From an uncultured virus (IMG/VR IMGVR_UViG_3300021431_000114) (Duplodnaviria; Heunggongvirae; Uroviricota; Caudoviricetes), in the IMG/VR virus record IMGVR_UViG_3300021431_000114, positions 56,141 through 76,140 of that record: DNA of 20,000 nucleotides; one strand, 5' to 3'. The notes beneath the pieces are model-generated. The model was not told the DNA's origin. It saw only the letters and a list, made by a program, of their open reading frames with translations, and did not search any database. Below, piece after piece: positions 2,876-15,944 of this stretch. Every line of letters begins with the position of its first letter. Within the stretch, counting starts at the first letter, position 1. A program made the translations under genes and the position numbers.

Positions 2876-4465
2876 TTACAGTATATCCAATAGTCCTTCT
2901 GCATCCAATCCCTCGCCGTTCTGTCCGAGCACTTCTTCAAGTATGACGTAGCGGATTGCGTCGATGCAGTTGTGTACAAGCAGGCCGTTGGCGTAGTACT
3001 CATGCTGTTGCGCTACTTCCAAGTCAAAGACTTGGGCCTCGCCTGCGTCCTCTGCAAAGATAGCTTTAATTTCCCGTGCTGTTTGCTCGTTGCGCTTTGT
3101 TTGTGTAAACACAACGTCGCCTGCGTGCAAACACGCGATTTTTTGCCACTTTGCAGCCGTTCTTACAAGGTGATTGGGCGTTGCCCGAACAACTATCTGC
3201 GCATCGTCAAAAACAAGCGTGTAACGCTGAATTTTGCGCTTTCCGTTCTTCCACAGCTTTGTTACGCGCTTGTAGCCTGCGCTCGTCAGCACCAAATCGT
3301 CCGTCGTGATGTTGGCAATACGCTTTGCGCCCATCGATGTTGTTACAAGCGTGTCTGCTGTGAAGCAGTGGTTGAAGGCATCTACTGGCTCGTTGAGCCA
3401 CTTGCCGTTTTTGTCTCGTCTGTACACGTAGCTTTTCAGTTCTTTTATTAGGTTGACACTGCGACGCGTCACGACAAGCTTGAACTGCTGCATCTTCTGC
3501 AAGCCAGCCTTTACGCTGCCGGGGTACTTCTTCACGCCGTGAATGTCAATGCCTGTGTTGTAAATTTCGTCTATTTCTCGCGGCTCTGCGCTGTCAGCCC
3601 ACACCTTGGGCATCCATACTTGCTGCTGCTTAAGCTCCTTGATGATGTCCTCCGTACCCATCTGCGTGCGGTAGCAAAGCTCGTCCAAGTAGATTGTCTT
3701 GCCCACAATGCTGACAAGCACAATGGCCGTCGGGTCGTTGGTGTAGCCAAAGTCCAGTCCAAGAAAGCGGTGTCGGCGTGCCTGGGGCGGCAGCTCGTCC
3801 ACGATTTCAAACGACTTGAAGATACGCCCCTCAATGATTGCACGCTGCCCAAGCCCGTACACTTGCCACAGCGAGGGCGATGTGTCCTTAAGTTCCTCAA
3901 TGCTGTCAATGACGCTTTGCTCAAGAAACGGATTGTCCTTGTATGTGCTGATGAAGAACTTCGTGCGGGAGCTGTTGTTTACTTTGGTAACTATCCAGTG
4001 GTCTTCGTCAAAGCTCGGGTTGTAGTCTATCAGTGTGAACAGCGTGGTACGGAGCTTAAGCTGCGTCCACTCGTCAAAGGACAGCTCGTTTGCTTCGTTT
4101 ACGTACAGTATCATGCGCTTACGACCACGCAAACGCTGATCATCCGTCGCAGGGAAGAACTCTATCCAGCTGCCGTTAGGAAACGTGTAAATGAAATCCG
4201 TCAGGTTCATGCACTTGTCGCTCCACTGACCCATGCGCTGCATGATGTCCTTGAAGTCGCGGAACACAGTACCTTTTAACGCAGGGCGCGTGCCACGAAC
4301 AACTGCAACAGTAGTACCGGGAAACGACAGACAGCGCACGATAAGCCAAATGACGATGGTGTACGTCTTGCTGCTTCGTGCGCTACCTTGTGCCGACACT
4401 GTGCTGTAGCCCGCGTCAAAGGCACTCTGTATAACGTTGTAAACCCTGCTGACTTGTATCTTCAC
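2876..4465 (-). CDS. terL: Terminase large subunit (PBSX-like) containing a mini-intein; likely GTG start at 4465
   Basis: Walker A-like QGSARSSKT, LRG, Walker B YVNEANE, DYNP, STYKDNPFL, nuclease GLDFGYTNDPT, ADSAEP and C-terminal NH/CIDAIRY. Confidence 0.95.
   Translation of the reverse strand: MKIQVSRVYNVIQSAFDAGYSTVSAQGSARSSKTYTIVIWLIVRCLSFPGTTVAVVRGTRPALKGTVFRDFKDIMQRMGQWSDKCMNLTDFIYTFPNGSWIEFFPATDDQRLRGRKRMILYVNEANELSFDEWTQLKLRTTLFTLIDYNPSFDEDHWIVTKVNNSSRTKFFISTYKDNPFLEQSVIDSIEELKDTSPSLWQVYGLGQRAIIEGRIFKSFEIVDELPPQARRHRFLGLDFGYTNDPTAIVLVSIVGKTIYLDELCYRTQMGTEDIIKELKQQQVWMPKVWADSAEPREIDEIYNTGIDIHGVKKYPGSVKAGLQKMQQFKLVVTRRSVNLIKELKSYVYRRDKNGKWLNEPVDAFNHCFTADTLVTTSMGAKRIANITTDDLVLTSAGYKRVTKLWKNGKRKIQRYTLVFDDAQIVVRATPNHLVRTAAKWQKIACLHAGDVVFTQTKRNEQTAREIKAIFAEDAGEAQVFDLEVAQQHEYYANGLLVHNCIDAIRYVILEEVLGQNGEGLDAEGLLDIL
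2969..3367 (-). mobile_element. Mini-intein (133 aa, Hint domain only) in TerL
   Basis: Begins CFTADTLV (block A), has ATPNH (block B TxxH) and VFDLEV (block F), and ends NGLLVHN followed by Cys+1. Removing it restores DAFNH-CIDAIRY. Confidence 0.93.
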
Positions 4466-4547
4466 GTTCCTATTCCTATATACGTGCGTATGTGCGTGCA
4501 AGCGTGCGCATCATTTTCGTGCAGTCACGAAAATGGTAGGCTGCACG

Positions 4548-5408: not shown

Positions 5409-6020
5409 CTACTCAATCTTAGTGTTGTTGACTAAGTTCATGAACTCGCTGCGTACAGCTGCGTCCGTGAGGAACAGCCCTTTAAGGCAGGAGTTTGACA
5501 TAATGCCCTTCTTGCGTGCTCCGCGTATTTCCTTGCACGTGTGATGGGCTTTCATTACGCAGGCAATGCCCAGCGGAGCGCACTCTGCTGGCACGTCGCT
5601 TGTCAGTGCTTCCTCAATCATATTCACTACGTCATGCACCAAACGCTCCTGTATCTGCATGCGTGCAGCACAGTAGTCCACGACGCGGGCAATCTTGCTC
5701 AAACCGAGTATCTTGCCGTTGGGGTGTGGAATGTAGGCAAAGAAGTACTGCCCCATGAAAGGCAGCACGTGGTGCTCGCACATTGAAGCAAAGTCGCCCG
5801 TGTCCGTAACCATTTGGTCGCACACAAGGTTGTCCTTGCCATTGTCAAACACTGTAATCTTGGGCTTCTGCGCCGGGTCGTAGCCGCGAAACAGCTCTTT
5901 CCACATACGCACGACACGCTCAGGCGTGCCTTGCAGCCCAGCACGGTTCGGGTCTTCACCCACATACTCCAGCAGCTCGCGCACATGCTGCTCTGCTTGT
6001 TCCTTTGTCAGCTTTGCCAT
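5409..6020 (-). CDS. folE: GTP cyclohydrolase I (start ATG 6020, MAKLTKEQ)
   Basis: GEDPNRAGLQGTPERV, SMCEHHVLPF, GLSKIARVV, QIQERL and HTCKEIRG motifs. Confidence 0.95.
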   Translation of the reverse strand: MAKLTKEQAEQHVRELLEYVGEDPNRAGLQGTPERVVRMWKELFRGYDPAQKPKITVFDNGKDNLVCDQMVTDTGDFASMCEHHVLPFMGQYFFAYIPHPNGKILGLSKIARVVDYCAARMQIQERLVHDVVNMIEEALTSDVPAECAPLGIACVMKAHHTCKEIRGARKKGIMSNSCLKGLFLTDAAVRSEFMNLVNNTKIE

Positions 6021-6024
6021 AGTG

Positions 6025-6363
6025 CTATTCCTCGTCAAGTTTGTAAGTAGCAACGTTGCTCTCGCTTTCCTGCACGTCAGCGCGGTAGCACTGCGGAATG
6101 GTGTCAACAATCCACTTTGCAATGTTCTCGGCTGTCGGGTTGAAAGGCAGCAGCTCGTTAAGGTTGCCGTGGTCGAGCTTTCCGTGTATGGCACGCTTGA
6201 TAAGCGCGAAGTCTGCAACCATGCCGTCCTTGTTCAGCTCCTTTGCCTTGCAATAGACGGTGACAATCCAGTTGTGGCCGTGCAAGTTTGCGCACTTGCT
6301 TTCGTAGGACAGCTGCAAGTGATGGCATGCAGCTATTTCCATTCTTTTCTTTACGTAGTACAT
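6025..6363 (-). CDS. queD: 6-carboxy-5,6,7,8-tetrahydropterin synthase
   Basis: CANLHGHNW (CxxxHGH), GMVADF, LDH, NPTAENIA and VQES motifs. Confidence 0.95.
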   Translation of the reverse strand: MYYVKKRMEIAACHHLQLSYESKCANLHGHNWIVTVYCKAKELNKDGMVADFALIKRAIHGKLDHGNLNELLPFNPTAENIAKWIVDTIPQCYRADVQESESNVATYKLDEE

Positions 6364-6413
6364 AGTCTTTATACTTTTACAGTTCTTTCCAATTCTTCTA
6401 ACACTTGAAAGTT

Positions 6414-7088
6414 TTACACGCCGCGCTTGTCCGCGTCCCAGATGAACTTGTGGATTTGCAGCTGCATTTTAACCCCGTTAAGGCGATTTTGAATAAGGAA
6501 CGATGCAATGTCTTGAAGCTCTATCGTTCCGAAGCATGCGCTCACTAAAACGTTGGTACGTGCAAGCAAGTTGTTTTGCTCGACAACGTACTTCATAATC
6601 TGCAAGTCGTGCAAGCTGCCCACAACAAACTTAACGCAGTCCGTCTTGTTGAGGTAGGCATAATTGCTTTGCTTCATCAGCTTTTGGTATGCGTTGCCTG
6701 CGCACTCCGTCTTGTAGTCCAGCGTTAGGCAAGGGCGATAAGACAAAGGCAGCTCCGCAAGCTCTGCAACGGACATACTGCCGTTTGTCTCTATCTCTAC
6801 CCGGTAGCCGTTGATTGCAAGCTGCAAAACAAGTTCCTTGATGTTCGCCTGCATAAGCGGCTCGCCACCTGTCAGCGTGACGTTCTTTACGTTCTGCTGC
6901 TGCACGTACTCCAGTAGCTCCTTTGCAGTCAGTTCCTCGTACTGTTCCGCTTTGTCGTAAGAATACTTGCTGTCGCAGTAGTCGCAGCGCAAGTTACAAC
7001 CGAAGAAGCGGATGAACACGGCAAGCTCGCCACTGTGCAAGCCCTCACCGTTAATGCTTACGAATTTCTCTACTACTTTGTACCGCAT
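6414..7088 (-). CDS. queE: 7-carboxy-7-deazaguanine synthase (radical SAM)
   Basis: FVSINGEG, FIRFFGCNLRCDYCDS (CxxxCxxC), TLTGGEPL, IETNGS and QLQIHK motifs. Confidence 0.95.
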   Translation of the reverse strand: MRYKVVEKFVSINGEGLHSGELAVFIRFFGCNLRCDYCDSKYSYDKAEQYEELTAKELLEYVQQQNVKNVTLTGGEPLMQANIKELVLQLAINGYRVEIETNGSMSVAELAELPLSYRPCLTLDYKTECAGNAYQKLMKQSNYAYLNKTDCVKFVVGSLHDLQIMKYVVEQNNLLARTNVLVSACFGTIELQDIASFLIQNRLNGVKMQLQIHKFIWDADKRGV

Positions 7089-7093
7089 ACAGA

Positions 7094-7762
7094 TTACTCC
7101 TTGTAAACAGTCATGTCTTCAACGCCTGCTGCGGCAAATGCAGCCTTACGGTTGCGGCAGCTGTCACACACACCACACTGGCACTCTCCGTTCTCGTAGC
7201 ACGACCACGTCTCTGCCAAGATGTCCTTGTCTTTCTCGTAGGCATACTTGATAAGGTCTGTTTTGTGCAGCCCAAGCAGCGAAGCGGTTTCAATCTTTAC
7301 GTGCTTCTCGCCACGGAACGTGCCCATATCCATTGCAAGCTCAAAGGCTTTGAAGAACGCGGGCGAGCAGTCGGGGAAAGCATACTCACCGTTGACAAGC
7401 ACGCAATCGTCCATGTGGCTTCCCAGCACGATCTTGTCAAAGCCGTTGGAATACGCGTACACCATAGCGATTTGCAGGAACATAGCATTACGCAAAGGCA
7501 CGACTACGCTTTTTTTGTAGCCCTGCTCTACTGCAACATCGTTTGTCAGCTGGTTTTCCTTGCCAAAGATGTGCTTAAGCGAGGAAATATCCATGCGCTC
7601 AAAGCCGAGGTTGTACTTGCTTGCAAGCTTCTCTACCACCTCGCTTTCCCGTTTTGCTTTCTGACCGTAGTAAAAGGTCATAAGCGTGGTGTCCTCGTTT
7701 ACGTAACGGAGTGCCATAGACACCGAATCAAGCCCTCCCGAACAAATAACTAATACTTTCAT
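7094..7762 (-). CDS. queC: 7-cyano-7-deazaguanine (preQ0) synthase
   Basis: PP-loop SGGLDS, YGQK, VPLRNAMFL, FPDC and TWSCY...CGVCDSC. There is no glutamine amidotransferase fusion. Confidence 0.95.
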   Translation of the reverse strand: MKVLVICSGGLDSVSMALRYVNEDTTLMTFYYGQKAKRESEVVEKLASKYNLGFERMDISSLKHIFGKENQLTNDVAVEQGYKKSVVVPLRNAMFLQIAMVYAYSNGFDKIVLGSHMDDCVLVNGEYAFPDCSPAFFKAFELAMDMGTFRGEKHVKIETASLLGLHKTDLIKYAYEKDKDILAETWSCYENGECQCGVCDSCRNRKAAFAAAGVEDMTVYKE

Positions 7763-7774
7763 ATTCGTTGTTTT

Positions 7775-8536
7775 CTAAAAGTTTACGTCTGCATACTTTT
7801 GGAACTTTACCCATTCAAGGAAGTTATGCGTCATAACCTCTTTGTAATTGCGTATCTTTGTTCCCTCGGGTCTGTTGCAGGTCTTTACTTTGCCTGCCTG
7901 CAAATCAAACTTGCAATACCCTCCCGATATGTTACCCATGAGCCAACTGCTGCTGTCAACGCTGTCGAAGCGGAAGTTGCCAAGCTTGGAGCTTGTATAG
8001 CCAAGCCCGTGTATCTTTGCGTTGTTCTTGTGTGCAGTAGCAATAAACCATGGAAAGTATTTCTCTATCACGCTTGACGGCAGGCCGTCAGTGAGTATGC
8101 CGCCGAAAGCCACGTATGAGTAGTTTTTGCACATCCATTCAAAGTACTGCTTGCCACGCGAGAGGTGAAACACTGGAATAGAACGCTTGCCCGTAAGGCT
8201 CTCCAGCCGTTCACGCAGTTGCTCCACCTTTTCCAGCCCGACAATGCTGTCAATGTCAAGCTCAAAGAAGTGCTTGATGTCGTATTTGTTTATGAAGTCC
8301 GCGTAGGCTTCCGTGTACTTCATCCAGTCCGTATCGTCCTTGCCCTTTACCATGTAGGTGAACGCTCCGCTGTCAAGCAGGAAATTGTCGTTAGCCGTCC
8401 AAATGCTTTCGGGAGCTTTCTTGTTGCTCAAAAGGTAGTAGTAGCTTTCGAGCAGGTACACACTGCGGAAGTCTATGTCGGAAAACTCCCGAATGTTCTT
8501 GTACTGATTTATTGCTGCTGCCAGGAATACACGCAT
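7775..8536 (-). CDS. TGT-fold (DpdA-like) guanine transglycosylase, probably acting on DNA
   Basis: LLDSGAF, FELD, IPVFH, AFGG, IHGLG and DSVDSSSW parallel the TGT catalytic motifs. It lacks the tRNA-TGT Zn-binding Cys cluster and lies next to the preQ0 genes. Confidence 0.8.
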   Translation of the reverse strand: MRVFLAAAINQYKNIREFSDIDFRSVYLLESYYYLLSNKKAPESIWTANDNFLLDSGAFTYMVKGKDDTDWMKYTEAYADFINKYDIKHFFELDIDSIVGLEKVEQLRERLESLTGKRSIPVFHLSRGKQYFEWMCKNYSYVAFGGILTDGLPSSVIEKYFPWFIATAHKNNAKIHGLGYTSSKLGNFRFDSVDSSSWLMGNISGGYCKFDLQAGKVKTCNRPEGTKIRNYKEVMTHNFLEWVKFQKYADVNF

Positions 8537-8538
8537 AC

Positions 8539-9129
8539 CTATTTCACTTTTACGTTTTCGTAGCCTGCAAGTGCAGCTTCAATGGCTGCTTTAATTTCTG
8601 CCTGCTGTTCCTCCATTTCGGGCGGGAACGTGACTTCAATCTTCAAGTCCTTTACCTTTTCCTCTTTGGGCTTTTCCTCAAAAAGCTTGTCGATGTCAAC
8701 GTCCTCGTTGCCACCAAGGAAAGAGCAGTCAAGTCCCCAATCCTGCACGTCGCCCGTGTCCCACTCATTGGCAATCAGCTCCCAATCAATGTTACCGAAA
8801 GCCACGTTGTCCTTGATGGTGTACTCGCACAGTTTTTCTACGGGCGTGTCCTGCTTGAACACATAGCAGGGCAGCTCCTTGAAGCCAAGCTCGCGGCAGG
8901 CACGCAGGCGCATGTTACCGCCAATGACTACGTAGTGCCCGTTTTGCAGCGGATAGACAAGCAGCGTGCGTGCTTCCAGCAGCTCGGGCGCGTCCTCAAT
9001 GCTCTTTTTAAGTGCTTCGTAACGCTCGTCCTTTATCCAGCGAGGATTTTTGGGCAGTCCTTCAAGCTGTCCGCTGTTAAGCTCCAGCAGACTGATGTCG
9101 AGCGTCTGATACGGAATGTTGTTACTCAT
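8539..9129 (-). CDS. ParB/Srx N-terminal domain protein (start ATG 9129, MSNNIPY)
   Basis: KNPR, LKKSI, VIGGNMRLRAC and IKDN motifs typical of phage ParB-like proteins found near terminase genes. Confidence 0.85.
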   Translation of the reverse strand: MSNNIPYQTLDISLLELNSGQLEGLPKNPRWIKDERYEALKKSIEDAPELLEARTLLVYPLQNGHYVVIGGNMRLRACRELGFKELPCYVFKQDTPVEKLCEYTIKDNVAFGNIDWELIANEWDTGDVQDWGLDCSFLGGNEDVDIDKLFEEKPKEEKVKDLKIEVTFPPEMEEQQAEIKAAIEAALAGYENVKVK

Positions 9130-9150
9130 GCGTTTTACTTGATTTTGAAA

Positions 9151-9189
9151 TAAACTACGCAAAAGTAAGCAAAACTAAGCAAAATAAGC
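9151..9189 (-). promoter_or_regulatory. Promoter of the ParB-que-packaging operon: -7 box TACTTTTG (9167-9160) embedded in about 10-bp AAAnTAAGC repeats
   Basis: Matches Bacteroidota TAnnTTTG about 30 nt upstream of ATG 9129. Plus-strand units are taaactacgc, aaaagtaagc, aaaactaagc and aaaataagc. Confidence 0.65.
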
Positions 9190-9228
9190 AGATTTTAGGC
9201 TGCTGTGTGTAAACAGTAAACACAACGA

Positions 9229-9528
9229 GGGCGCAAAGCCGTATTGCCTTGCGCCCATACCTAACCTAAATAAACATCTATATTACACCGTGGGAAAAAA
9301 GTTTCTTTGAAAGAAGCGCACACCGCTGTATGCGCTTGAAGCAGTACGTAATGCTTCTATATAGCTTTTGGATAGCTTTCTTTTGGGAGTGCAGTACCGG
9401 CTTCACAGCCAACTGCACGTGTAGTTATTTGCCTATGTTCACAATCTATGAGTTATTATTGATGAAAGGTGTTGCTTCGAAAAAGCAGCTGCGTTTCACA
9501 ACGGGGCTGCTGGTGTATGAATAAAAAG
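9229..9528 (-). ncRNA. Candidate structured sRNA array: four main hairpins separated by unique segments
   Basis: Hairpins at 9229-9256, 9314-9337, 9389-9418 and 9484-9511. G-U wobbles and GUGA tetraloops occur on the minus strand. Segment 9366-9379 is complementary to the repressor mRNA leader. Confidence 0.55.
9480..9511 (-). terminator. Terminator-like hairpin downstream of the DnaA-C-like gene
   Basis: The minus strand reads AGCAGC-CC-CGTT-GTGA-AACG-CA-GCTGCT-TTTT. Confidence 0.5.
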
Positions 9529-9873
9529 TTAATCAGTTCGTTGCTTATTACTAAGCGCGTCTTGTTTGGATTGAAGATAATCGACTATTTTGTTGTAGAG
9601 ATTTGTCGTTACAGCGTCGCGCACTTCCAGATAGCCCTTGTAGTGCTTGGCAACAGTTATAACGTTGGCACGGCTGCGCTTTATCGTTGCTGCTGCATCC
9701 GTTGGGTGTATGCCTGCCAGCTTCGTTACAGCACAGTACAGCCCGCGAGCAAGGTTTACGTCGCGTGACTTCGGTGCATAGACAAGCTGCTCGCTGCTGA
9801 TGTTGCAGACTGCACAAACAGCCTGTGCCACCTGCTCGGAGCTGCAAACAATGTCTAACTTTGGTACTGTCAT
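9529..9873 (-). CDS. HTH DNA-binding protein resembling DnaA domain IV; putative regulator
   Basis: VCAVCNISSEQL...KSRDVNLARGLYC...AATIKRSRANVI follows the Bac_DnaA_C pattern. Confidence 0.7.
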   Translation of the reverse strand: MTVPKLDIVCSSEQVAQAVCAVCNISSEQLVYAPKSRDVNLARGLYCAVTKLAGIHPTDAAATIKRSRANVITVAKHYKGYLEVRDAVTTNLYNKIVDYLQSKQDALSNKQRTD

Positions 9874-9898
9874 TTACGCGTTTTCTGTAATTTTGCGT

Positions 9899-9929
9899 CA
9901 AAGGTAAGCAAAATTAAGCGAAACTAAGC
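9899..9929 (-). promoter_or_regulatory. Promoter of the DnaA-C-like gene: -7 box TACCTTTG (9906-9899) within three 10-bp AAAnTAAGC repeats
   Basis: Plus-strand units are aaaggtaagc, aaaattaagc and gaaactaagc, the same architecture as 9151-9189. Confidence 0.65.
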
Positions 9930-9941
9930 GTAAATAAAGTA

Positions 9942-11114
9942 TTATTTAGTATCATTTAACAAATAGTCTATCACGGCACGGTTGGCTTCGTCCACCTTTT
10001 TATTGCTTGCGCGTATGTACACGCGTGTAACGTTTGCGCCCGAAGTCTGCGAATGCCCAAGCGCACGGCTGATGGTGTCGTCGGGAATATCAAGGTTGTA
10101 CGCAAACGTTGCCCACGTGTGGCGTGCCCAGTACAGCGTAAGGTTATCAATGCCTATGCGCTTGCCCATTTCGCCCAGCCAGTAGTTACATTTGTTGGCG
10201 AACATGTTGTAGCGCGAAACGCTGTCAAACCAAACAAGCAGGTGCTGTTTGCCGCGATACTTGTCAAGGAGTGCCTGCGCTTCCGGCTCAATCTTTATGT
10301 CGTACAGCTTGTGTGTCTTGCTGCGCAAATACTGCAAGCGTCCGTCCGTCGGCTCTGCGAGGTCTGCAAGGTCTGCAACGTTAATACCAATAAGGTAGAA
10401 CGTGAGCAGAAAGCAGTCCTTGTAACGCTGTTCGTGCGCTGCACAAGGCAACGACATGAAGCTGCGCATCTGCTGTAGGCTTAAGCTGCGCTTCTGCGTT
10501 TCCTCGTGCTCCATTTCAAACTTTCGGAAAGGGTAGCACGTAATGGTGTCCTGCTTGATGGCGAAGTTGAACACGGCACGCAGGTTACGGAAGTGTATGC
10601 TGCGCCCGTTGGGCTTCGGGCTGTACTTCATGAGGAACAGCTTGAAGTCATTGAGCCAGCGCACCGTCATTTCCTCAAACGTAAGGCTGTTCCAGTCCGC
10701 AAACTTGCCCACAAGGGCTGCTGTGCGTGCATAAATTCGCTGTGTGCTGCTGTTTTGCTTCAACGCGATAAACTGCTCGTAGGTGTCCCGAAACAAGTGC
10801 GGCAGCTCGTTCTCATCCTCTTTTTGCAGCATGGCTATGATCTGCTTGTCTGTCAGCGAGCGCATTTTGCCGCTTGCCTGCAACTGCAACAGCTTTGTTT
10901 CCGCGTCGCTTTGCCGCTGGCGCAAGACAGCGTTGAGCACCTTGCGGTTTGCCATGTTGACAATCTGCTGCGTCCGCTCGTTCCAGTCCTGCGGCAGCAC
11001 GTCTATCCCGACAGGCACATAGAACGTGTGCTTGCGGGCTACAGCAAGCTTCAGCGGATAAGTGCCGTCCTTGTGCTTGTAACGTGTGTCAAGCCGTACT
11101 GATACCTTTACCAT
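9942..11114 (-). CDS. int: Tyrosine integrase (Bacteroidota type, with arm-binding, SAM-like and catalytic domains)
   Basis: N-terminal LDTR..KDGTYPLKL, then FRNLRAVFN, YLRSKT, YWARHTWAT, ALGH and VTRVY. Adjacent to attP. Confidence 0.93.
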   Translation of the reverse strand: MVKVSVRLDTRYKHKDGTYPLKLAVARKHTFYVPVGIDVLPQDWNERTQQIVNMANRKVLNAVLRQRQSDAETKLLQLQASGKMRSLTDKQIIAMLQKEDENELPHLFRDTYEQFIALKQNSSTQRIYARTAALVGKFADWNSLTFEEMTVRWLNDFKLFLMKYSPKPNGRSIHFRNLRAVFNFAIKQDTITCYPFRKFEMEHEETQKRSLSLQQMRSFMSLPCAAHEQRYKDCFLLTFYLIGINVADLADLAEPTDGRLQYLRSKTHKLYDIKIEPEAQALLDKYRGKQHLLVWFDSVSRYNMFANKCNYWLGEMGKRIGIDNLTLYWARHTWATFAYNLDIPDDTISRALGHSQTSGANVTRVYIRASNKKVDEANRAVIDYLLNDTK

Positions 11115-11148
11115 AGTGTGCCGTAGTCAAAACATAAGGGGCAAATAA

Positions 11149-11175
11149 TTTGCAACTTTTTTGCAACTTTTTCGC
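11149..11175. repeat. Candidate integrase arm-type site: tandem TTGCAACTTT, 11-bp period
   Basis: TTTGCAACTTTTTTGCAACTTTTTCGC, with a near-identical copy at 11360-11385. Confidence 0.8.
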
Positions 11176-11241
11176 CCCAAACAGTCCTAAAATGTCACTC
11201 TTTGCCTGCCTTGCAGCAGCAGCGGTTTTCTTTGTAAATCG

Positions 11242-11297
11242 CGGAGAGACGGGGATTCGAACCCCGGATGCGCTTTTGACGCATACACGCTTTCCAG
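11242..11297 (-). pseudogene. 3' half of tRNA-Ser(GGA), forming the attP identity block
   Basis: The minus strand reads CTGGAAA-GCGTG-T-ATGCG tcaaaag CGCAT-C-CGGGG TTCGAAT CCCCG-TCTCTCCG: anticodon loop, long variable arm, T arm and 3' acceptor strand. The 5' anticodon stem and D arm are absent. Confidence 0.9.
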
Positions 11298-11359
11298 ACC
11301 TATCTACTCCGCTTTCTAATTGGCTGTTAATCAATAAAATAAAAATCGCTTTGCGAGCG

Positions 11360-11385
11360 TTTGCAACTTTTTTGCAACTTTTCGC
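11360..11385. repeat. Candidate integrase arm-type site, second copy
   Basis: TTTGCAACTTTTTTGCAACTTTTCGC, a direct repeat of 11149-11175 on the other side of the tRNA fragment. Confidence 0.8.
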
Positions 11386-12012
11386 TTATTTCAGTGACAT
11401 CAGCATCAGCACTCTATACCATGCGCGAATGTCCTCTTTGGCAATCGTGAAATCGTCAAAGTCGGGGTTGATGCTGCGGCACACTATACGGCTGTCATCC
11501 TCTTTGCAGGGGAACACGTTCTTTACAACTGGGCCGTTTACCGTGTCAAGCTCGTAAGTCCTGCCCCACTCGATGAACGCTGCTTCGTTGATGCGCTTGA
11601 CGAGTATCTTGCAGCCGCTTGGGTATTCGGGAGCCATGCTGTCGCCCGTTATCGTGCTGGCGTGGCTTGCATCCTTTATCGGGCTTACGACCATTTCACA
11701 TTCGTATTCGTGTACCTGTGCTTCAAAGTCCGTAGGACTGCCACCCTGCACACTGATGGGCAGCAGCGGAACATAGACTGCATCATCCTTACCAGCCGCA
11801 AACAAGTGAGCAGGCATCATTTCGCCCTCGCCCGTTTTCAGCCAGTCAGCATTGACTTGCGGGAACTGCTCACGCAGTGCTGCAAGCACCTTTGCGCTCG
11901 GCGACTTCGTATTCTGCGCGTAGGCATTGCTAACGCCGAGCTTCTTCTGTAACTGCGCAACACTTAAGCCAAGCGCATACGCGAGTTTGCTAAATCGTTC
12001 CTTAAAATCCAT
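11386..12012 (-). CDS. CI-like repressor (HTH plus S24 peptidase); likely start ATG 12012
   Basis: N-terminal HTH with VNADWLKTGEGEM, and GDSM (Ser) and VVK (Lys) S24 motifs. Divergent from the early genes. Confidence 0.9.
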   Translation of the reverse strand: MDFKERFSKLAYALGLSVAQLQKKLGVSNAYAQNTKSPSAKVLAALREQFPQVNADWLKTGEGEMMPAHLFAAGKDDAVYVPLLPISVQGGSPTDFEAQVHEYECEMVVSPIKDASHASTITGDSMAPEYPSGCKILVKRINEAAFIEWGRTYELDTVNGPVVKNVFPCKEDDSRIVCRSINPDFDDFTIAKEDIRAWYRVLMLMSLK

Positions 12013-12085
12013 AAAAAAGCTATCCAAAAATCTTAATAATATATAATTTTGTATAGTAATTTATAGGCAAATTTAGTTTTTTATA

Positions 12086-12126
12086 GTAACTTTGCCCTTG
12101 CATTACGTTTACGGGTGCAAAGTTAC
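12086..12126. promoter_or_regulatory. Face-to-face promoters of the genetic switch: TAACTTTG on plus (12087-12094) and on minus (12125-12118)
   Basis: Inverted repeat GTAACTTTGC...GCAAAGTTAC. Both halves match the Bacteroidota -7 consensus. Confidence 0.75.
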
Positions 12127-12168
12127 AAAATTATCTTCAAATTGATATACATTATTAAGTATTTTTAT

Positions 12169-12342
12169 ATGGAAATAACATCAAAACAGGAAAAGCACGA
12201 AGCTGTTTACAACAGATTCAAGCAGCTTTGCAGCGACGGGCTGACGAAAACAGCCGCGACGTACAAGGTAATGTCAGAGTTTAACATCTGCACTCCAACG
12301 ACAGTGAACAACATCCGAAAGAAGTTTGAAGGAGGGAACTAA
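12169..12342 (+). CDS. Small Cro-position HTH-like protein (57 aa, MEITSKQ)
   Basis: First gene divergent from the repressor, with an AT-rich leader and a helical basic sequence. Confidence 0.65.
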   Translation: MEITSKQEKHEAVYNRFKQLCSDGLTKTAATYKVMSEFNICTPTTVNNIRKKFEGGN

Positions 12343-12345
12343 GCT

Positions 12346-12543
12346 ATGACAAGTACAGAACCTAAAGTAAGTGATAGCGGCTGGTACGATACGGGGCAGA
12401 CGGCGCTTGCGCTGGGCGTTGACCGTCGTACTATTGCACGGCACACTGAAAAGGGCTATATCAAGTGTAAAGTAAGGAAGTGTAACAACCGACGCGTGTA
12501 CTCAGGGCGTGAGATAAAACGCTATTGGGGAGCACAGTATTAA
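12346..12543 (+). CDS. Excisionase-like / HTH_17 (MerR-like winged HTH) protein
   Basis: YDTGQTALALGVDRRTIAR...GYIKC...RRVYSGREI pattern. Confidence 0.75.
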   Translation: MTSTEPKVSDSGWYDTGQTALALGVDRRTIARHTEKGYIKCKVRKCNNRRVYSGREIKRYWGAQY

Positions 12544-12616
12544 GTACGACAACTTTATGGACGAGCAAGCAATTTACAATCTTTACAGCGTGCAATGCGC
12601 ACTAAACACAATTGAT

Positions 12617-14012: not shown

Positions 14013-15944
14013 ATGGCAAAACAAGTAATCATTCAAAAAATGCAGCTGCAAAACTTCAAGAACATTCGCAGCTTGAACTTGGAGTTTGGCACGCACACGA
14101 CAACTGTAAGCGGTACTAACGAGCAGGGCAAAAGCACTGTGTACGACGCTTACTTGTGGTGTCTGTTTGGCAACACGACGCGCAAGAACGACTGCGTGCA
14201 GCCGACGGACAAGAACAACGAGATTGTTCACAAGATTGACACGGAAGTAACCGTCGTGCTGCTTGTGGACGGAGTGGAAACTGTTCTGCGCCGACGCTTG
14301 ACGGAAAAGTGGAAAGCAGAGGGAACGGGCGAGGAAAAGTTCATCAGTGCCGCAATGGAACGCTTCTACAACGACGTGCCTTGCAGCGTGAAGGAGTTTG
14401 AAGCAAAGCTGTCTGCAATCTTTAACCTTAACGGCTGGCTCATGCTTTCCAACATTAAGACGTTCATGCAGCAGAAAATGGAGGACAGACGGCGCATCCT
14501 TGCAAGCATCACGGGCGAGCTTGACACGACGGCACTGCTTGCGGAGTTCCCGCTTGTCAAGGCAGAAGTTGACAAGGGCAAGACGCTGGAAGAACTGCTG
14601 AAACAGACGTTGAGCACGAAAAAGCGTGCGCAAAAGGAAATCGACACGATACCCAAGCAGATTGCAGCACAGGACAACTTGCGCGTTGAAGCGGACTTTG
14701 CGGCACTGCGCACGCAGAAGCAGGAACTTGACACGCAGATTGCCGACATTGAAAAGCTGTTGCAGGCTGATCCTGCGGAGCTTGAAGCAGACAAGCGCAA
14801 CAGAGCGGAGCTGCAAACGCTGGAAACGCAGTTACAGCAGGCACGTAAGAAGTGGCAGGACGAGCACTTTGCCGCATTACAAAAGCTGCGTGTGGCAGTT
14901 ATGAACGCACAAGACACGCTGGGCACTGCTGAAAAACAGCAGCGCAAGTCAGCGGACGCATACAACACGGCACGCAAGAAGCTTAAGGACTTGCAGCAGC
15001 AGTTTGACGAAAAGAAGCAGGCATGGTTTGCAAAGAACGCAGAGGAATTTACGTACACGCCCATCACCGTTTGCGCCTGCTGCGGACAGCCGCTTTCAGC
15101 GGAAGCACAGCAGCGCATGCAGGACAAGGCCGCTACGCAGTTTAACACTGACAAAGCAAACGCACTGCAACAGCTGTACAGCGAGAGCGCACAGCTTAAG
15201 GAGCAGATAGTGGTGCTTGAGAAGCAAGTGAAGCAGTACGAGCAGCAGACGCAGGCAGAGGACACGAAAGCTGTTGCAGACGCGAACACAGCTATTAAGA
15301 CAGCAAAGGATGCCGTTGCTGCGGAGGAACAGCGCACGGTTGACACTGACAACACCGTTGCCGAGATTATAAGCAAGATTGGCGTGCTGCGTGCATCCAT
15401 GCAGAAGCCCGAAATGTCCGCTTCGGAGCAGGAGCAGCATGCGAAGCTTAACGAGCTGAAAGCACAGCGCGACGACATAGTACGCCAGCTTGCAGGGGAG
15501 CAAACAAACGCTAACATCAACAAGGAAAAGGAACGTCTGAACGGTGTCGCACAGCAGCAGTCGCAGATAGTAGCGGACTGTAACGCAGTGCTGGAACAGC
15601 TGCGCAAATACAACCGCAAGGTGCTGGACGCTACGGAAAGCAAGCTGTCACAGTATTTCAAGCTTGCACGCTGGAAGTTCTCGGAACAGAACAAGACCAA
15701 CGACGACGAGCAGCAGGTGTGTACAGCTGTGTATAACGGCATTGAATACGACCGCTTGAACAATGCAGGGCAAGTCAACGTCGGTATTGACATCTGCGAC
15801 GGCATTAAGAAAGCGTTTGGCGTGGAGCTGCCGCTGTTCGTGGATAACACGGAAAGCGTGGAGCACGTGCTGGAAACGCAGTCACAAATTATCAAGCTGC
15901 GCTTTGTACCGGGCGCACAGCTGACAGTAGAAAAAGACGTGTAA
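14013..15944 (+). CDS. Rad50/SbcC-like coiled-coil ATPase
   Basis: LQNFK, Walker A GTNEQGKST, a long coiled coil with central Zn hook CACCGQ, and Walker B LFVDNTES. Confidence 0.88.
   Translation: MAKQVIIQKMQLQNFKNIRSLNLEFGTHTTTVSGTNEQGKSTVYDAYLWCLFGNTTRKNDCVQPTDKNNEIVHKIDTEVTVVLLVDGVETVLRRRLTEKWKAEGTGEEKFISAAMERFYNDVPCSVKEFEAKLSAIFNLNGWLMLSNIKTFMQQKMEDRRRILASITGELDTTALLAEFPLVKAEVDKGKTLEELLKQTLSTKKRAQKEIDTIPKQIAAQDNLRVEADFAALRTQKQELDTQIADIEKLLQADPAELEADKRNRAELQTLETQLQQARKKWQDEHFAALQKLRVAVMNAQDTLGTAEKQQRKSADAYNTARKKLKDLQQQFDEKKQAWFAKNAEEFTYTPITVCACCGQPLSAEAQQRMQDKAATQFNTDKANALQQLYSESAQLKEQIVVLEKQVKQYEQQTQAEDTKAVADANTAIKTAKDAVAAEEQRTVDTDNTVAEIISKIGVLRASMQKPEMSASEQEQHAKLNELKAQRDDIVRQLAGEQTNANINKEKERLNGVAQQQSQIVADCNAVLEQLRKYNRKVLDATESKLSQYFKLARWKFSEQNKTNDDEQQVCTAVYNGIEYDRLNNAGQVNVGIDICDGIKKAFGVELPLFVDNTESVEHVLETQSQIIKLRFVPGAQLTVEKDV

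Follow-up and report, generated by a model that had tools for sequence, protein, structure and literature searches.

Why does a short non-coding segment of a temperate phage genome carry the exact reverse complement of a sequence lying just ahead of the start codon of the phage's own repressor gene, 2.6 kb away? Antisense RNAs have long been known in phage lysis-lysogeny circuits. Their textbook targets are the antirepressor, cII and Q, and they are encoded at or next to those targets. At the present locus the two complementary sites are far apart and the gene concerned is the main repressor, so that RNA pairing has to be weighed against a shared DNA site, an invertible segment and chance.

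Results

Gene setting of the two sites

The window, i.e. the whole 20,000-nucleotide stretch that was analysed, takes up the final 20 kb of a 76-kb virus record, and its gene content, as seen with Pfam and PHROG, is of the temperate phage type. It is probably a phage of Bacteroidota from animal guts, a group that has been little studied. The landmarks used below are the following.

Minus strand: portal and large terminase genes (Pfam/PHROG).
8539-9129, minus strand: ParB-N-like gene (Pfam/PHROG).
9529-9873, minus strand: gene of a 114-aa stand-alone DnaA-domain-IV-like protein (fold match), called here the small gene; the non-coding region behind it would be its 3' UTR.
9899-9933, minus strand: putative small-gene promoter region, with 10-bp-phased GCTTAnnTTTn repeats and a TACCTTTG box at 9899-9906 (repeat search).
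9942-11114, minus strand: tyrosine integrase (Pfam).
11241-11297, minus strand: attP core, identical in sequence to the 3' part of a host tRNA (tRNA-Ser/Arg DNA match; RNA cover).
11386-12012, minus strand: CI-like repressor gene, HTH plus S24 peptidase (Pfam Peptidase_S24; PHROG transcriptional repressor).
12068-12075, minus strand: TAAATTTG box, putative promoter -7 element, 56-63 nt upstream of the repressor ATG and identical in all lineages.
From 12115, plus strand: early genes, in the opposite direction (Pfam/PHROG).

A sigma-70 promoter scan is ill-suited to this type of host. We take TAnnTTTG to be the Bacteroidota -7 promoter element, and with the TAAATTTG box in that role the leader sequence complementary to the distant segment would fall inside a 5' UTR of about 50 nt of the repressor mRNA. 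Translation in Bacteroidota depends on an open, A/U-rich start region.

The 10-bp-phased GCTTAnnTTTn repeats lie over the putative promoters of both the ParB-like and the DnaA-domain-IV-like genes (9150-9190 and 9899-9933, minus strand); elsewhere in the 76-kb genome, tandem copies are limited to a single place. They may be a shared operator, or else a stack of promoter boxes.

Two further features of the minus-strand genes were seen in passing. A 7-deazaguanine synthesis set occupies 5409-8536, with GTP cyclohydrolase I, a radical-SAM QueE-like protein, QueC and a queuine tRNA-ribosyltransferase-like protein (Pfam/PHROG), and this gene content suggests that the phage modifies its own DNA. In the large terminase (2876-4501), Hint/intein-type matches, all below the Pfam cut-offs, cover approximately residues 379-511; this stretch may be an intein or an intein remnant.

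The attP core is situated between the two complementary sites (9366-9379 and 12016-12029). RNA cover over it is very deep, confined to 11241-11297 and with loose ends on both sides, and no complete tRNA gene was found in the window. An integrated copy of a 94%-identical phage was available (contig L006, 1-5186): its likeness to the window stops at the attP core, about 150 nt beyond the stop codon of the repressor, and gives way to G+C-rich host DNA. Either side of the core there are 23-nt perfect direct repeats (11149-11171 and 11360-11382), each made of two 11-nt units of TTTGCAACTTT and present too in the relatives L002 and L007; these are likely arm-type integrase sites.

The complementary pair and its chance level

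The sequence-only reading of this locus had pointed to an exact 14-nt complement, and the window sequence bears this out: TTTTGGATAGCTTT (9366-9379) is the exact reverse complement of AAAGCTATCCAAAA (12016-12029). The second 14-mer does end 3 nt before the repressor ATG, the repressor ORF starting at 12012 on the minus strand. The same reading had proposed an RNA pairing of about 22 nt that covers the AUG, with one mismatch and G-U pairs, and RNAduplex returned the same duplex, at -30.0 kcal/mol. By a repeat search of the window, the extended inverted repeat measures 21 nt at 90% (9366-9386 / 12009-12029). The two sites are described as follows.

9365-9386, minus strand: proposed antisense segment (the seed), with its exact core at 9366-9379; the flanks lengthen the pairing over the repressor AUG.
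12009-12030, minus strand: target, i.e. the repressor 5' leader and start codon; the core 12016-12029 corresponds to -17 to -4, the ATG to 12012-12010.

Across lineages (see below) the target spans -20 to -4, and in lineage A it reaches +4. Because the sites are inverted while both genes lie on the same strand, their transcripts are complementary rather than identical.

One element of the earlier description had to be abandoned. The seed was said to belong to an array, and Tandem Repeats Finder reported no repeat over 9365-9386; the segment lies among four different hairpins, and the repeats nearest to it are 10-nt repeats at 9152-9190 and 9905-9930.

How far the match exceeds chance depends on the space that is searched. 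The window holds four distinct long-range exact inverted repeats of at least 14 nt, this pair included, and 80 of 100 dinucleotide-shuffled windows had at least one such 14-mer (mean 2.1 k-mer pairs). At the window level the 14-mer alone is therefore not beyond chance. When the comparison was restricted to the leader (-50 to +6) and the approximately 400-nt non-coding region, none of 2000 shuffles attained 14 nt. Significance against shuffled sequence, which had been suggested as a check, is thus obtained for the specific pair of regions and not window-wide.

A longer inverted repeat, of 16 exact nt (6455-6470 / 14037-14052), joins two coding regions 7.6 kb apart and contains a GCAGCTGC palindrome. 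It is probably due to chance.

Seed and target co-vary in three lineages

Records that carry both sites form three lineages: A (the window and L001), B (L002, which equals L009, and L008) and C (L007). Identity to the window is 99% for L001, 77% for lineage B and 78% for L007. Viral contigs were scanned with the repressor, the small protein, the integrase and the hairpin pattern, and gave the same two contigs each time and none further. A metagenome scan yielded L005 to L009, among which L005 and L006 carry the repressor side only. Genome-contig scans produced one match, on the high-GC contig L012, which was dropped as chance.

The small gene and what lies downstream of it are, in B and C, far more diverged than their flanks: the protein is 56-60% identical and blastn fails to align the small-gene stretch. 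Each lineage carries an exact same-strand complement of its own leader, 14 nt long in A, 14 nt in B and 15 nt in C. Its position is homologous in all three, with the seed just 3' of a hairpin (H2, below) and the target just upstream of the ATG, and the complementary sequences are different in each lineage. In shuffles of the non-coding regions, the observed length was attained 0, 0, 0 and 1 times out of 2000.

Three compensatory double changes were counted, a G-C to A-U change between A and B/C, and one A-U to G-C plus one G-C to A-U change between B and C. No disrupting change was found inside the exact cores. Between L002 and L007, the last 100 nt through the ATG show 2 differences only; each of them falls in the target and has its compensating change in the seed, and in the non-coding region 68 of 264 alignment columns differ. 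The target patch is the quickest-changing stretch of an otherwise conserved repressor leader. The earlier proposal that segment and leader should co-vary across related phages was accordingly upheld, with a 14-15 nt own complement in each of three lineages. Different sequences, each exactly complementary and with compensatory changes, bring chance close to exclusion.

The complementarity was also lineage-specific. The longest exact pairing is 14-15 nt for cognate pairs versus 7-10 nt for non-cognate ones. Cognate duplexes come to -30.0, -23.3 and -23.1 kcal/mol, and combinations across lineages A, B and C to -16.6 to -21.0 kcal/mol; in B and C, the cognate energy was equalled by 8 of 500 shuffled RNAs. 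In L001, one flank base differs and the window's only mismatch is gone, so that 20 of 22 positions are identical, including the start-codon complement; the same base is present in an RNA contig (X1, below). Beyond the shared 10-nt core, the extra identity runs toward the ATG in A and away from it in B and C. Such a lineage-dependent direction is allowed by a duplex and is not predicted by a fixed protein footprint. In the L006 leader the first base of the 14-mer is not that of the window, and the partner site is off the contig.

Among 80 loci with integrases approximately 40% identical, the small gene was found only in the 2 relatives already known. Five of these distant loci have an upstream HTH gene (three distinct leaders), and there the best leader complement is 9-10 nt, which is the background level. 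These loci therefore give no support for generality of the seed-target match among more distant phages.

A folded non-coding region behind the small gene

On the minus strand, the three lineages share a common layout: small-gene stop, H1, H2, an open linker with the complementary segment, H3, H4 and the ParB-like promoter region.

9484-9511, minus strand: hairpin H1, inner stem and GNRA tetraloop, just behind the small-gene stop (co-variation).
9389-9418, minus strand: hairpin H2, immediately 5' of the seed, with a GUGA tetraloop; shared by the three lineages, the stem varying in length.
9338-9357, minus strand: small hairpin 3' of the seed (MFE structure; lineage A only).
9290-9337, minus strand: H3 (9314-9337), then a U-rich tail and a U6 tract (co-variation; U6-7 across lineages).
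9229-9256, minus strand: strong hairpin H4 and U-rich tail, kept also in L002 and L007, where one pair is compensated.

Co-variation of the hairpins was scored on separate ungapped alignments, the whole-region MAFFT alignment having misaligned H1. The stems of H1 are wholly different and yet paired: 8 of 11 pairs are double-changed, 32 of 33 cells are paired, and none of 500 shuffles scored as high. The H1 loops read GUGA, GCGA and GAGA in the three lineages, and the loops of H1 and H2 together are GNRA in six cases out of six, which can be read so only on the minus strand. For H3, all 24 cells are paired and 2 of 8 pairs are double-changed, a weak test since 52 of 500 shuffles scored as high. 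H3 and its U tail are likely an intrinsic terminator and the 3' end of the RNA, and H4 is proposed as a second terminator ahead of the ParB-like gene promoter. Co-varying stems, GNRA loops and U tails together argue for selection on a folded minus-strand RNA, and the minus strand is the one that the pairing requires. In single-sequence folds, openness of the seed is moderate, with P(unpaired) of 0.51-0.62 versus 0.46-0.51 overall.

H1 (9484-9511; 7605-7632 in L002, 7545-7572 in L007) has an identical inner stem and flanks, YGTTG-N-GAAAC-R-C, and its outer stem is replaced in each lineage. A U run follows it in lineage A only. By this pattern H1 itself appears to be a specific recognition element.

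No conserved ORF was found over the region: a 64-aa frame (9330-9524, plus strand) has no Pfam match, and the L002 non-coding region has no frame of at least 60 aa. A search of 8500-12600 against Rfam 15, with E up to 1, gave two sub-threshold matches only, both over the tRNA-like attP core, and on this comparison the non-coding region is a member of no described RNA family. Between H1 and the seed no promoter box was seen that could serve a separate small RNA, and the simplest view is therefore that the RNA would be the small gene's own 3' UTR, whole or as a processed fragment. The layout is that of a 3'-UTR-derived small RNA, with a stop codon upstream on the same strand (9529) and the terminator-like hairpin H3 (9290-9337) at the end.

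Contigs from RNA libraries

RNA evidence consisted of unstranded contigs, taken from metatranscriptomes of animal guts in different studies, a type of library in which DNA can also be present. No joints were reported for these contigs. X1 is a single 471-nt contig at depth 12 (9289-9759), which runs from the ORF into the non-coding region and is not proof of a single transcript. X5, a variant approximately 92% alike in which the 14-nt core is kept, covers about 9276-9505, 9536-9687 and 9724-9878, and X4 covers 9516-9872. The repressor ORF is partly covered by X3 and X5. Contigs of two studies end at 9289 and at about 9276-9293, within some 15 nt of each other and just past the H3 tail. Cover is absent over the integrase body, the ParB-like gene start and 12012-12115, gaps that carry no evidential weight. 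The contigs show that sequences of the non-coding region and of the repressor are present in RNA libraries, and nothing more.

The small protein has a predicted DnaA domain IV fold

A model of the 114-aa protein reached a pLDDT of 90.7. Its top fold match was the DNA-binding domain of M. tuberculosis DnaA (3pvp_A, TM 0.89 on target, rmsd 1.5, 96 columns), and ranks 1-10 were all DnaA chains, 3pvp_A and 1j1v_A among them, with identities to DnaA of 10-18%. Pfam Bac_DnaA_C scored 17.9 bits, below the 31.5 cut-off, which leaves the protein outside that family by the Pfam measure. A profile search of PDB sequences with it found no DnaA, and noise only. The protein family is tiny, with 7 clusters among 5.8 billion proteins; six of these (P0002-P0007) represent further lineages of the small protein, at 58-75% identity. 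From the model we are confident that the protein has the DnaA domain IV fold. A DnaA DNA-binding domain carried alone by a phage, if the model holds, could compete for host DnaA boxes.

Discussion

A candidate antisense RNA on the repressor start

The reading that we favour, with a probability of roughly 0.55, is that an antisense RNA borne by the 3' UTR of the small gene pairs with the translation start of the repressor mRNA and lowers repressor synthesis. Approximately 240 nt behind the small gene (9528 to about 9290, minus strand) would be made as RNA, either as the 3' UTR or as a small RNA cut from it. This RNA would fold into H1, H2, an open linker, and the terminator hairpin H3 with its U tail. 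The linker (9386-9365) would pair in trans with the CI-like repressor mRNA, from about -20 to +4; this mRNA is produced 2.6 kb away, from the same strand and on the other side of attP. The duplex would cover the place where the ribosome binds, and less repressor would be made, each phage lineage having its own matched seed and target. We infer the strand of the RNA, the position of the target inside the repressor mRNA, the meeting of both RNAs and the sign of the effect.

The trans-encoded anti-repressor RNA of the sequence-only reading is therefore retained in part: complementarity, co-variation and the RNA features of the minus strand speak for it, the array does not survive, the coupling between RNAs is a deduction, and the DNA operator offered as its alternative still stands. 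Against RNA pairing, it should be kept in mind that both sites are present in only three lineages, and that any constraint keeping two DNA sites identical gives the same co-variation. As to its role, the RNA could possibly commit the phage to lysis or defeat immunity. The RNA contigs seen for both partners in gut samples would equally fit a steady damping, or fine-tuning, of the repressor level in lysogens.

A more speculative extension, which we regard as improbable, is that the seed-target pair acts as a lineage-specific address, each RNA silencing its own type of repressor only, so that the pair would determine immunity specificity at the level of RNA. As long as the phage DNA is circular, transcription of the repressor gene that continues past attP and int would yield a message with the antisense segment in cis; after integration, regulator and target would be tens of kb apart and would meet only in trans. 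As the two are on opposite sides of attP, the circuit could report the integration state, a sib-like logic applied to the repressor.

Other explanations of the two sites

The principal rival is that both sites are copies of a DNA site for the 114-aa protein or for host DnaA, whose binding would block repressor transcription or alter the local DNA, with no RNA pairing at all. We hold this to be unlikely, though it draws on real features. A protein with the predicted fold of a DnaA DNA-binding domain is encoded next to one of the sites, and its putative recognition stretch varies slightly by lineage (RSRANV, RSRAHV, RSRVNV). The core common to the lineages, (C/T)TAT(C/T)CAAA, matches the DnaA box consensus TTATnCACA, as given in an excerpt of its source (PMC5742627), at 6, 6 and 7 of the 8 specified positions, and one of the between-lineage differences coincides with the 'n' of the box. 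The likeness to DnaA ends there, this being a stand-alone domain with a sub-threshold Pfam match and no DnaA returned by the PDB-sequence profile search. The identity between the two sites also goes well beyond a 9-bp box, which cannot account for 14-15 exact nt (20 of 22 in L001) or for the lineage-dependent side of the extra identity. The co-varying positions are the free position 5 of the box, its first position and one 3 nt past it, and these should drift independently. An exact 11-mer occurs at only two places in the 76-kb genome, and likewise at two each in L002 and L007, which leaves a DNA-site explanation without a regulon; nor would it explain the conserved RNA hairpins around one of the copies. 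Should it be true nonetheless, a stand-alone DnaA DNA-binding domain would be acting as a phage regulator of the phage's own repressor, a case that full-text literature searches did not turn up.

It could also be that the pairing is real and that its roles or sign are reversed, the leader acting on the 3' UTR (on its stability, or on read-through of H3 and H4 into the ParB-like gene and those after it), or the duplex raising repressor synthesis by opening a leader hairpin. The seed does lie just upstream of two terminator-like hairpins; the predicted leader folds of L002 and L007 (-15.3 and -12.9 kcal/mol) place the target at the top of a hairpin with the AUG in its stem, and the duplex of lineages B and C stops 5-7 nt short of the AUG. 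The window leader hairpin, however, is weak and different (-7.7 kcal/mol), so that an AUG-holding hairpin is not conserved, and the lineage A duplex spans the AUG itself; we think a reversal very unlikely. Still less weight is given to the sites being inverted repeats of an invertible 2.6-kb segment, comprising the small gene, the integrase, attP and the repressor, whose flip would cut the repressor from its promoter. Invertible promoters are common in Bacteroidales, the repeats are inverted with one of them between the putative repressor promoter and the ATG, and identity kept by recombination would yield the same co-variation. Yet all five records spanning both sites (the window, L001, L002=L009, L007 and L008) are collinear and none is inverted, X1 and X5 run through the 9366-9386 site in that same order, and Pfam finds no recombinase in the window besides the arm-binding tyrosine integrase beside a tRNA-type attP. 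The repeats are not palindromic themselves, and inversion would leave the RNA hairpins unexplained. Least credible of all is a functionless match, arisen by chance or left over from a short duplication. The sequences are A/T-rich, inverted 14-mers are found in 80 of 100 shuffled windows, and three other pairs exist in this one; but in three lineages different sequences, each exactly complementary, sit at homologous places with compensatory changes.

Comparison with known systems

Among known systems, c4 (immI) of P1 and P7 is the nearest to the proposed antisense RNA in logic. This phage RNA base-pairs at the site where ribosomes bind the mRNA of a lysis-lysogeny gene, and RNA and target differ in matched fashion among related phages. 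c4 is processed out of the very transcript on which its targets lie, and it blocks the antirepressor operon, thereby supporting immunity. The likeness lies in an RNA directed at a ribosome-binding region and in lineage-matched pairs; here, in contrast, the target would be the main repressor, the RNA is encoded 2.6 kb away across attP, and there is no relation to c4 in sequence or Rfam. With respect to placement across attP, the nearest system is sib of lambda, where the regulatory element and int lie on opposite sides of attP and integration changes their linkage. sib acts in cis as an RNase III site on the read-through int mRNA, whereas the present element complements the repressor leader and has its own promoter-bearing gene upstream.

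The excerpts of a 2025 review of phage small RNAs, which covers sar, OOP, aQ, 24B_1, VpdS, PreS and others (PMC12197685), describe P22 sar as a small antisense RNA by which translation of an immunity regulator is stopped at initiation, and lambda OOP and aQ as phage antisense RNAs that tip the decision between lysis and lysogeny. The sar RNA is transcribed opposite ant, its target, and favours lysogeny, whereas the candidate RNA comes from a separate locus and its match is short, at 14-22 nt. OOP and aQ are encoded opposite cII and Q, and neither acts on the cI translation start, the counterpart of which would be the target here. As to its origin in the 3' end of a coding transcript and its action on a phage mRNA, the candidate resembles CisR, a small RNA which, in the excerpted account (PMC13250501), comes from the prtV 3' UTR, ends at the gene terminator and acts on the cep mRNA of the CTX phage. 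CisR is host-encoded, Hfq-linked and from a proteobacterium; the present case would be a phage RNA acting on a phage repressor, probably in a Bacteroidota host. No phage small RNA aimed at the start of the main repressor appears in the excerpts of the review (PMC12197685) or was found in full-text literature searches. Antisense control in phages is known, and to judge from these comparisons a distant 3'-UTR RNA acting on the main repressor start would be a new form of it.

The natural seed and target variants of the three lineages provide ready-made compensatory mutants. If the antisense RNA is real, it would be a direct post-transcriptional input to the central lysis-lysogeny switch, by which a distant, structured 3'-UTR RNA acts on the start of the main repressor.
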